DNA from: a virus
IMG/VR virus record: IMGVR_UViG_3300008448_000040
Span: 14,725 to 78,724 of that record
DNA: 64,000 nt
Strand: one strand, 5' to 3'
The notes beneath the pieces are model-generated. The model was given only the letters and a program-made list of their open reading frames with translations. It ran no database searches and was not told the origin of the DNA. Positions 14,533 to 51,077 of this stretch are shown piece after piece. Both the position numbers and the translations under genes were made by a program. Each line of letters opens with the position of its first letter. Within the stretch, counting starts at the first letter, position 1.

Positions 14533-14786
14533 GGTTGCGTTGTACTATAATAAACACCAACATAAGATCTCAATTTTGTTTTACCGTCTGCAGGATATGG
14601 ATTCTCATCGGGTATTTTTTGCACTGGAGTTTCAAGATAACCAGTAGCAACATACTCGAATAAATCTATTTCTTCTGCAGTTAGTGGTTCAGTAAACTTG
14701 AGCTCATTTTTGATGGCTGCTTTATCTTCAGGTGTTGTTGCCTGACCATACCTCTGTAATATATCTCTGTAATCTGGTTTAGCCAT
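14529..14786 (-). CDS. Hypothetical protein
   Basis: Translationally coupled to neighbours. Confidence 0.6.
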   Translation of the reverse strand: MAKPDYRDILQRYGQATTPEDKAAIKNELKFTEPLTAEEIDLFEYVATGYLETPVQKIPDENPYPADGKTKLRSYVGVYYSTTQP

Positions 14787-26886: not shown

Positions 26887-27552
26887 TTAAGAATCATAAA
26901 CATACTTTTTTCTTTGCTCCAAAACTTCTTTTCCTACTGTTTCGTGTAACTCTCTTAGTTTCTTATCGGAAGGAATGTCAGGCTTGATTGCTAGTTGATC
27001 TCTGCAGTCATACTTGAATTCTTTGAATGGTCCATCAGCATCGACATAATGTAAGAATATTTGAGTCATTTCGTTTCCGAGATAATTACCAGGTCTCCAA
27101 TGAGGAACTTCACATCCTTTGTAAATAGCTAAATCACCTGGTTCTAACAATACCCTTTCTTCTGATCCATCATCTTGATCGAAACACATCTCCCAGGGAA
27201 TAGGATCATAGTAAGTATTGAGAGTGACTGAATATTCACAGCTAGGCCTATCAATATGTTTAGGTAAGATAGAGTCTTTATAGTAAATCCTAAAATAGCT
27301 GTAAGTGGGATATAGTTTTTTACCAGAAACCTCTTCTACCATTGGCTTCAAGTACTCTAATAATGTTTCAGTACAACTCCAGCCATATGCTTTAAAGCAT
27401 TGCTTAGTCATTTTATCTGAAAAATAAGTCAAATCGGATTTGTCTACTCCGAGATTGTAGTAGTAAGTGTCTCTGAAGATCTTAACTTGCTGATTTATGA
27501 ATGAAGTCAGCTCTGGAGAGATAGCATTTCTAATAATGTGATATTTATTCAT
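26887..27552 (-). CDS. 2OG-Fe(II) oxygenase-like protein
   Basis: PTYSYFRIY, HIDRPSCEYSVT, HWR, QIFLHYVD; start moved to MNKYH so it does not overlap the tmRNA. Confidence 0.75.
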   Translation of the reverse strand: MNKYHIIRNAISPELTSFINQQVKIFRDTYYYNLGVDKSDLTYFSDKMTKQCFKAYGWSCTETLLEYLKPMVEEVSGKKLYPTYSYFRIYYKDSILPKHIDRPSCEYSVTLNTYYDPIPWEMCFDQDDGSEERVLLEPGDLAIYKGCEVPHWRPGNYLGNEMTQIFLHYVDADGPFKEFKYDCRDQLAIKPDIPSDKKLRELHETVGKEVLEQRKKYVYDS

Positions 27553-27568
27553 AGAGTCAAAAATTAAT

Positions 27569-27885
27569 GCCGGCTGATTGGGTAATAAGGACAGCCGGCT
27601 AAACCCCATCTAGCAATTTAAGCTGCTAGAGCGTAACGCTCGTCATTTGCGTTTACTATTTTGCTTCATTTACGTCGATCGCCTGACGTGTTGTCCACTC
27701 TCCTACTCCTTGCCCTGTCGAAACCATGTCTGGCCCATCAGAAGTGTCCTGCTGTTCACAGGTCGGGAATTCCAATCCTCAGAGCTTTGTTAAACCCTTA
27801 CATATCACCCTAAACAACACTTCTGGTGGACCAGGCGGGAGTCGAACCCGCGTCCAGAACACCTTTTGGTTTGCTTCATACAACA
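27569..27885 (-). ncRNA. ssrA: Circularly permuted (two-piece) tmRNA, tag ANDERYALAA
   Basis: 3' piece GCGGGTTCGACTCCCGCCTGGTCCACCA ends at 27824 and lies upstream of 5' piece GGGCCAGACATGGTTTCGAC starting at 27736; G3:U70 pair; tag ORF 27650-27618. Confidence 0.92.
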
Positions 27886-27897
27886 ATATCTAACACA

Positions 27898-28110
27898 CTA
27901 TGTAGGATCCACCCCTACGTAACCGACCAGCGGTATCTTAGTCTTGTCGTCGCCTTTGCCACTTCTAGATGAATAGTGTGTTCTTTTTTGCTGTTCACAA
28001 TATTCTACACAGTGTCCACAGCAAATGTCAACATCTTTGAGTCTGTTCAACAGTTCATCTGATGTATCGTAGTCTGATTCTTTGATGTTTCTGCAAACAC
28101 AAACAATCAT
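27898..28110 (-). CDS. Bfd-like [2Fe-2S] ferredoxin
   Basis: MIVCVC...CGHC. Confidence 0.75.
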   Translation of the reverse strand: MIVCVCRNIKESDYDTSDELLNRLKDVDICCGHCVEYCEQQKRTHYSSRSGKGDDKTKIPLVGYVGVDPT

Positions 28111-51002: not shown

Positions 51003-51077
51003 TGGTTGCGGGGGAAGGAATCGAACCTCCGACCTGTGGATTATGAGTCCACCGCTCTACCGCTGCGCTACCCCGCG
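51003..51077 (-). tRNA. tRNA-Met (CAT) with initiator-like acceptor stem and encoded CCA
   Basis: CGCGGGG...GTGGA-CTCATAA-TCCAC...GGTTCGATTCC...CCCCGCAACCA; C1xA72. Confidence 0.93.

Follow-up and report, generated by a model that had tools for sequence, protein, structure and literature searches.

An uncultured freshwater T4-like phage carries a two-piece tmRNA gene whose internal spacer is a separately conserved, folded RNA module, and the same module also lies beside phage tRNA genes. This spacer is what is new here. The stretch of DNA analysed (hereafter the window) comprises 64,000 nucleotides, positions 14,725 to 78,724 of the virus record IMGVR_UViG_3300008448_000040. We consider it likely that the gene is a working beta-type two-piece tmRNA with a pseudoknotted module in its gap, and that this module is conserved separately from the tmRNA and mobile among the borders of tRNA-like genes. 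As a tmRNA, the gene adds little, being a further case of a large aquatic phage that brings a ribosome-rescue RNA of its own, in this instance of the beta two-piece kind.

Read on the minus strand, the gene has the order of a two-piece tmRNA, with the acceptor piece followed by an 87-nt spacer and then by the coding piece. ARAGORN reports a permuted tmRNA, at 27527-27916, whose tag is ANDERYALAA. An initial annotation, made from the letters alone, had described most of these features. Its positions for the CCA (27824) and G1 (27736), its 87-nt spacer, the G3:U70 pair and A73 are all right on the minus-strand read, and its tag was recovered by both ARAGORN and sequence reading. The closing stem of the spacer (CAGAAGUGU/ACACUUCUG), the helix-2 pairings CAGGGC/GUUCUG and ACAAC/GUUGU, and the terminal hairpin at 27599-27569 are present as described. 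Given the ARAGORN and Rfam matches, such a set of features is far too unlikely to have arisen by chance. The features are as follows.

27887-27937, minus strand: leader, which aligns with the unpaired 5' segment of the Rfam model; overlaps the end of an upstream 70-aa ORF (stop at 27898)
27824-27886, minus strand: acceptor piece, with the helix-2 5' strands, T-arm, acceptor 3' strand, A73 and CCA (ARAGORN, Rfam, sequence read)
27880-27885, minus strand: 5' strand UGUUGU of the distal inter-piece helix, at the start of the acceptor piece; its partner is ACAACA at 27694-27689, and both Rfam alignments have it paired
27851-27835, minus strand: T-arm (sequence read)
27834-27828, minus strand: acceptor 3' strand CUGGUCC (sequence read)
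27827, minus strand: discriminator A, A73 (sequence read)
27826-27824, minus strand: encoded CCA (sequence read)
27823-27737, minus strand: spacer, 87 nt (sequence read)
27737-27825, minus strand: intervening RNA module, that is, the spacer plus the CA of CCA (covariance model R1, 112.6 bits)
27565-27736, minus strand: coding piece, 3' end approximate (ARAGORN, Rfam, sequence read, folding)
27736-27730, minus strand: G1 and acceptor 5' strand GGGCCAG; 7 bp with CUGGUCC, with G3 opposite U70
27717-27711 and 27694-27689, minus strand: helix-2 3' strands of the coding piece (sequence read, Rfam)
27688-27673, minus strand: hairpin CGUC/GACG in the coding piece
27650-27618, minus strand: tag frame GCA AAU GAC GAG CGU UAC GCU CUA GCA GCU UAA, encoding ANDERYALAA and a stop
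27609-27630, minus strand: hairpin with the stop codon in its loop CUUAAA; 8-bp stem, -9.0 kcal/mol (folding)
27599-27592 and 27576-27569, minus strand: terminal 3' hairpin of 8 bp, GCCGGCUG/CAGCCGGC (sequence read, folding)
27559-27599, minus strand: 3' hairpin, AUUAA and a run of five U (27563-27559) (Rfam, folding)

The helix-2 pairings between the pieces are UGUUCUG/CAGGGCA, which includes GUUCUG/CAGGGC, and UGUUGU/ACAACA. Of the inter-piece helices in the Rfam model, the middle one pairs poorly in the window copy, where it bears non-canonical marks. The loop of the 3' hairpin is 15 nt long (UCCUUAUUACCCAAU) and agrees with the conserved loop of the beta family. Candidate pseudoknots with this loop, found by eye, were dropped as inconsistent among relatives.

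The 3' hairpin and its U-run are probably the 3' end of the gene or a terminator, and in relatives a U-run likewise follows the corresponding hairpin. A scan for consensus terminators around the tmRNA gene found no canonical terminator; it missed the 3' hairpin because the loop is longer than 8 nt. No convincing sigma-70-like promoter was seen directly upstream of the gene or within the spacer. The nearest promoter-like sequence, TTGACA-18-TAGAAT, is a strong one (11 of 12 matches) and lies on the minus strand at 28031-28002, inside the 70-aa ORF (28110-27898) and about 110 nt upstream of the tmRNA, and this site could drive the precursor. On the other side, the listed start (27609) of a minus-strand ORF at 26887-27609 falls within the tmRNA. 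The PHROG match of this ORF covers it from residue 20 onwards, and the U-run is followed by an ATG at 27552-27550; therefore, its start is probably 27552, without overlap of the tmRNA.

The Rfam family beta_tmRNA (RF01850) matches the gene with 140.0 bits against a gathering score of 84 (E 1e-42), over model positions 1-331 of 331, and tmRNA_permuted with 144.9 bits, where the gathering score is 47. The alpha_tmRNA model (RF01849) reaches 46.2 bits, under its gathering score of 50, with a partial match, and cyano_tmRNA (RF01851) reaches 38.9 bits against 70, on the tRNA-like domain only. The gene has the features expected of beta_tmRNA: permuted order, a tRNA-Ala-like domain, inter-piece helices, and a tag that resumes on Ala and has a hydrophobic end in AA. 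By sequence and predicted structure, the window tmRNA is thus a member of the known beta-type two-piece family and is not new as a tmRNA. A close match to beta_tmRNA, which the initial annotation had named as removing its novelty, is what a full-length hit above the cut-off represents, with alpha and cyano models failing. Its circular permutation and Ala identity stand, with the permuted ARAGORN call, G3:U70, A73 and a proteolysis-type tag. Its description as minimised does not fit a gene of 393 nt set against a 331-position model, with extra length that comes from an insertion of 67 nt in the spacer relative to the family consensus. Furthermore, the little room for pseudoknots that it had noted is no novelty of the phage but a trait of the beta family, in which pseudoknots are few. 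From family membership we infer that the RNA is transcribed, cleaved into two pieces, charged with alanine and used for tagging. Our statements on the beta lineage rest on Rfam, PMC11915505 and PMC9004378.

The betaproteobacterial beta_tmRNA genes of cellular genomes (RF01850; for example, Dechloromonas, Azonexus, Thauera, Gallionellaceae) share with the window copy the permuted order, G3:U70, A73, the inter-piece helices, a hairpin before the tag, a tag of the ANDExxAxAA type, the stop-codon loop hairpin and the conserved 3' hairpin loop. In contrast to these genes, the window copy is phage-borne and encodes CCA, whereas the sampled Rhodocyclaceae genes end in CCC or CCT. Its spacer is 87 nt long, conserved and structured, whereas cellular spacers are about 30 nt and fast-evolving. 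The window copy also lacks the second 3' hairpin of the beta_tmRNA model. In the best match from a cellular genome, only the conserved cores align, with ~78% identity over 109 nt.

That the gene is encoded by a phage, as initially annotated, is borne out by the IMG/VR virus record (78.7 kb; CheckV completeness 45%) and by T4-type genes in the window for baseplate wedge proteins, tail proteins, gp32, the gp59 helicase loader and gp33. Further genes encode ribonucleotide reductase (RNR), thymidylate synthase, primase, a PstS-like protein and a carbamoyltransferase. DNA of the window was found again in metagenomes of freshwater and lakes, from 10 studies, and no RNA run was among the public runs that contain it. 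Isolated relatives are distant (best gp6 identity 39.6%). The contig is that of an uncultured freshwater T4-like myovirus. No psbA was found on the contig or in four relatives at least 98% complete, so this is probably not a cyanophage lineage, although its auxiliary genes resemble those of cyanophages. The only tRNA gene of the window is a tRNA-Met(CAU) at 51003-51077 (minus strand, 62.3 bits), and, unlike many relatives, the window has no tRNA array beside the tmRNA.

Related tmRNAs occur on more than 110 contigs of IMG/VR, where a generic pattern returned permuted tmRNAs in 110 of the 120 matches listed. Among 80 gp32-related loci, 18 have a permuted tmRNA on the same strand and upstream of gp32, as in the window. 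The window tmRNA is therefore part of a large viral lineage in which the gene sits a few kb upstream of gp32; its relatives, uncultured and more than a hundred in number, would all depend on the SmpB of their hosts. In a tree built on the mature tmRNA parts only, with the spacer cut out, the window falls in all-viral clades of 9, 14 and 51 rows (SH-aLRT 98, 96 and 99), and the main Rhodocyclaceae cellular clade lies far from them.

We compared 148 viral and cellular genes. Of these, 143 have a fully paired acceptor stem, 146 have G3:U70 and 147 have A73. Close relatives of the window show compensatory changes in the acceptor stem (CCAG/CUGG, CUAG/CUAG, CCUG/CAGG) and in the T-stem (GCGGG/CCCGC, GUGGG/CCCAC, GGCGG/CCGCC). 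The tag ANDERYALAA is also encoded in L056, L078 and L082, with 4 synonymous differences. From this conservation, the compensatory stem changes and the synonymous changes in the tag, we infer that the tmRNA is functional.

Comparisons between viral and cellular genes depend on how the genes were found. The pattern used for cellular genomes was too loose (79 of the 120 matches listed were not tmRNAs). Spacer length was fixed at different values in the viral and cellular patterns, and the last A of CCA was a requirement of the viral pattern alone; therefore, comparisons of spacer length and CCA drawn from them are biased. Ours rest instead on the set derived from gp32 loci and on the Rfam consensus. 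In the gp32-derived set, which is free of this bias, 10 of 10 typed genes encode CCA and spacers range from 67 to 119 nt. Every typed viral gene encodes CCA, and the chromosomal genes sampled from Rhodocyclaceae have CCC or CCT in its place. The encoded CCA may mark mobile tmRNA copies, and it also contributes the first pairs of the closing stem of the spacer.

In the model that we favor, one precursor would run from the acceptor piece (~27886-27824) through the intervening RNA (27823-27737) to the coding piece (27736 to ~27565). Host RNase P would cut 5' of G1 and the other end would be trimmed to the encoded CCA, as expected from the maturation of two-piece tmRNAs, and both pieces would be held together by the acceptor stem of 7 bp and by the helix-2 pairings. 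Host AlaRS would charge the tmRNA through G3:U70 and A73, and host SmpB and EF-Tu would deliver it to ribosomes that have stalled on broken mRNAs, which should abound while a T4-like phage degrades the mRNA of its host. The nascent chain would gain ANDERYALAA and pass to host proteases. No SmpB gene was found on the contig or in the four relatives at least 98% complete, so the tmRNA would need the SmpB of the host. The model assumes that AlaRS, SmpB and the proteases of the host fit the tag and the tRNA-like domain. The two cuts that free the tmRNA would also release the module as an RNA of ~87 nt.

Other accounts of the tmRNA fit the data less well. The initial annotation had proposed an independent circular permutation of a one-piece tmRNA inside a phage lineage. 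The separation of the viral clades from the main cellular (Rhodocyclaceae) clade, the encoded CCA and the long spacer of the viral copies would agree with this, but the gene matches the beta model end to end and shares with it the break point, the inter-piece helices and the conserved loop of the 3' hairpin. Neither the alpha nor the cyano model reaches its cut-off, and the starred branches of the tree are compatible with one origin of viral and cellular copies. We regard a separate permutation as extremely improbable. It is scarcely more credible that the gene is a decaying, non-functional passenger, a fragment of host ssrA gained by imprecise excision or recombination. While tmRNA genes are common sites of prophage integration and fragments are known in phage genomes (PMC9004378), the window gene is complete, its genomic position is conserved in many diverged T4-like contigs of lytic type, and its relatives show the compensatory and synonymous changes given above. 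Subversion in place of rescue, either by competition with the host tmRNA for SmpB or by re-tagging that redirects proteolysis, is improbable, though less so than these two. A tag-less tmRNA-like RNA of phage DS6A has been reported to inhibit host tmRNA (PMC11915505), the authors who described phage Melnitz propose selective tagging for amino-acid recycling (PMC9004378), and the phage has no SmpB of its own. However, the tag retains an ordinary ALAA end and is close to cellular beta-type tags such as ANDERFALAA, and therefore fits ordinary rescue and degradation.

The spacer departs from the pattern of cellular genes. Among 630 pairs of cellular beta-type genes, the spacer is more conserved than the mature RNA in none, and in most it is far less conserved. 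The viral comparison set consisted of 102 distinct genes selected blind to spacer sequence. Viral spacer identities in this set are bimodal, either near-identical or unrelated, and most pairs are unrelated (~53%). In 62 viral pairs the mature parts are less than 80% identical and yet the spacers are at least 85% identical; in 12 pairs the mature parts are at least 90% identical and yet the spacers are unrelated. The spacer type of the window has 11 members among the 102 genes, with an average identity of 95% in the spacers and 77% in the mature parts. In a larger set, chosen by spacer motif, the flanking DNA is ~53% identical. At least five other spacer types (in IMG/VR loci L012/L019/L044/L057, L025/L030/L033/L106, L035/L089/L116, L034/L058/L104 and L021/L105/L197) likewise outdo their tmRNAs in conservation, with, for example, 94% against 71% and 98% against 78%.

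Spacer type does not follow the tmRNA tree. The tmRNAs closest to that of the window (L050 and L013) carry other spacers, and L014, with a spacer 97% identical to that of the window, is far off on the tree. The window spacer type requires 6 changes on the tree and its carriers are not one clade; constraining them to one clade costs 101 log-likelihood units (AU test, p = 0.03, a marginal value).

The module folds into a closing stem P1, a P2 hairpin, a helix P3 and a P4 hairpin, on which RNAalifold and manual reading agree. Its minimum free energy is -26.8 kcal/mol, with a z-score of -2.7. A pseudoknot between a UUGUU strand and AACAA in the P2 loop lies outside the fitted model and pairs in every sequence, with one compensatory change to G-C (L330). 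Covariance model R1 aligned 63 copies, of which 24 are distinct, a low diversity. Bases pair in 99.3% of cells, compared to 38-50% when the partners are slid, and both sides have changed in 14 of 29 pairs, compared to 0-5 with slid partners; as the alignment was fitted to the nested structure, these values lean towards that structure. All five pairs of P2 co-vary, and in L350 the entire P2 stem is swapped while the loop is kept. About half of the positions of the module are invariant.

The module has no counterpart in the collections that we searched. The spacer matched none of the 4227 models of Rfam 15, which include self-cleaving ribozymes and riboswitches, at E<=10, and a search of 27690-27870 gave tmRNA models only and otherwise noise below 16 bits. 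No riboswitch or other Rfam family was detected at the window tmRNA. BLAST with the module found no match in 50,697 isolate phage genomes, model R1 found no diverged homologues among the other spacer types, and a second anchor pattern for the module added one locus only.

The contexts of the module were read from 64 copies with readable flanks in IMG/VR and metagenome contigs; these contigs are partly of common origin, so the copies are not all independent. The contexts are as follows.

Gap between CCA and G1 of a tmRNA: 52 copies, in tmRNAs with many differing acceptor stems and tags
Immediately 5' of tRNA-Ala(UGC) in a phage tRNA array: 8 copies, with the module ending 1-3 nt before the tRNA
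Immediately 3' of a tmRNA coding piece: 3 copies, in which the tmRNA has a different spacer of its own
Just 5' of a tmRNA acceptor piece: 1 copy (L330)

At the tRNA-Ala loci, the upstream neighbor of the module is tRNA-Leu, tRNA-Arg or an 83-nt gap. A second spacer type (L077) is found in tRNA arrays upstream of tRNA-Ser (L329, L338); therefore, the link to Ala is specific to the module of the window. More generally, phage tmRNA spacers are drawn from a pool of structured modules that lie between tRNA-like genes. The idea that every tRNA-Ala leader shares a tmRNA spacer failed, as the remaining 9 of the 14 have no match among tmRNA spacers.

Conservation of the spacer could also act on the DNA, either as a selfish or recombining cassette with P1 as its terminal inverted repeats or through co-conversion by homing endonucleases in clusters of RNA genes. 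The conflict between spacer distribution and the tmRNA tree, the bimodal identities and the occurrence of one identical variant in 24 loci are as this account would have it, and an HNH endonuclease adjoins the tmRNA and tRNA cluster of phage Marzo. However, a DNA-only element would not keep compensatory changes, and the double changes in 14 of 29 pairs, which include the P2 stem swapped under a kept loop, together with a pseudoknot pair altered on both sides, therefore disfavor a purely DNA-level reading, which we consider unlikely. Mobility and RNA function of the module are compatible with each other.

Our best guess is that the module is a stable small RNA or an element that assists maturation, and that it depends on processing of the tRNA type. 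It is quite possible, though we would not yet call it probable, that the module is an undescribed autonomous structured RNA that colonizes, in freshwater T4-like phages, the borders of tRNA-like genes and is freed by the RNase P and 3'-end cuts that also make the tmRNA pieces, to act as a stable small RNA, as an aid to maturation or as a ribozyme of a new kind. Small stable RNAs that are co-processed with tRNAs include the species 1/2 RNAs of the T4 tRNA cluster, and a 3' external spacer of an E. coli tRNA acts as an sRNA sponge. These RNAs lie within tRNA-type transcripts and are freed by tRNA-processing enzymes, and the role proposed here for the spacer module would be analogous; unlike them, the window module sits inside the gap of a permuted gene.

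The short, fast-evolving spacer of cellular two-piece genes is what would be expected of a discarded linker, whereas the phage spacer is a discrete module, better conserved than the functional RNA around it, supported by covariation, mobile among genes and shared with tRNA arrays. If the module is a functional RNA, it would represent a new class of phage RNA and a model of extra RNAs that exploit tRNA processing, and the annotation of spacers in permuted RNA genes and in phage tRNA arrays would change. If it is autonomous, the gap of a permuted gene would be a slot for a second gene.

Two-piece tmRNAs have been described in other aquatic phages. The OM43 phage Melnitz, a T4-like aquatic myophage, has a complete permuted two-piece ssrA, related marine myophages also carry a two-piece tmRNA, and ARAGORN found 53 permuted two-piece tmRNAs in isolate phages, mostly aquatic, with Stenotrophomonas, Synechococcus and Caulobacter phages in Table S1 (PMC9004378). 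The Melnitz tmRNA is alpha-type with a reported glutamine riboswitch, whereas that of the window is beta-type. In a 2025 tmRNA database (PMC11915505), beta-type permuted genes are mainly from Pseudomonadota and are scattered in MAGs of many other phyla, a pattern that binned phage DNA would give.

The tmRNAs of the Stenotrophomonas phages Marzo, Mendera, Moby and IME-SM1 (Menderavirus) are annotated in GenBank and given as permuted in Table S1 of Buchholz et al. 2022. The Marzo tmRNA lies among tRNA genes and is beta-type like that of the window (94.6 bits, above the beta_tmRNA cut-off). Compared to the window, these phages belong to other phage groups and hosts, DNA similarity is confined to the T-arm and acceptor (~81% over 68 nt), and BLAST found no copy of the spacer module in them. 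It should also be noted that the annotated Marzo tmRNA (MZ326868, 70,936-71,422; L351) overlaps tRNA-Thr and tRNA-Leu features at its two ends, so its boundaries in the record are probably too wide.

Some viral two-piece tmRNAs encode long tags of 27-31 residues (for example, ANADTFDFSAMSFTGNTVSGKSKVALAA). These form a recurrent class in IMG/VR (L018, L019, L025, L030, L033, L057 and others), and some hold an internal ANDxxFALAA-like unit. Permuted tmRNAs, mostly with encoded CCA, were also seen in genomes of Oxalobacteraceae, Herminiimonas, Noviherbaspirillum, Stenotrophomonas, Cupriavidus and Pelistega (L207, L222, L250, L293, L309, L300, L307, L310, L297, L252/L253), several with odd long tags. 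These lineages normally have a one-piece tmRNA, and the permuted genes may be second copies borne by prophages.

The sole isolate phage with a tmRNA that aligns over most of the window gene (77.5%) is the freshwater T4-like Synechococcus phage BUCT-ZZ01 (ON615601). Its tmRNA is a beta-type permuted RNA (94.5 bits) with the tag ANDETFSMALAA; it differs from that of the window in having a different and longer spacer and in its reported host, a cyanobacterium. Deposited phage genomes can miss such tmRNAs or overlay them with hypothetical CDSs. The BUCT-ZZ01 record is an example: it has no tmRNA feature, and the hypothetical CDS UTS52133.1 spans the gene (L004, ~116,860-117,290). In the same genome, ARAGORN also calls a nearby tRNA with a CUA anticodon, which would read amber codons.
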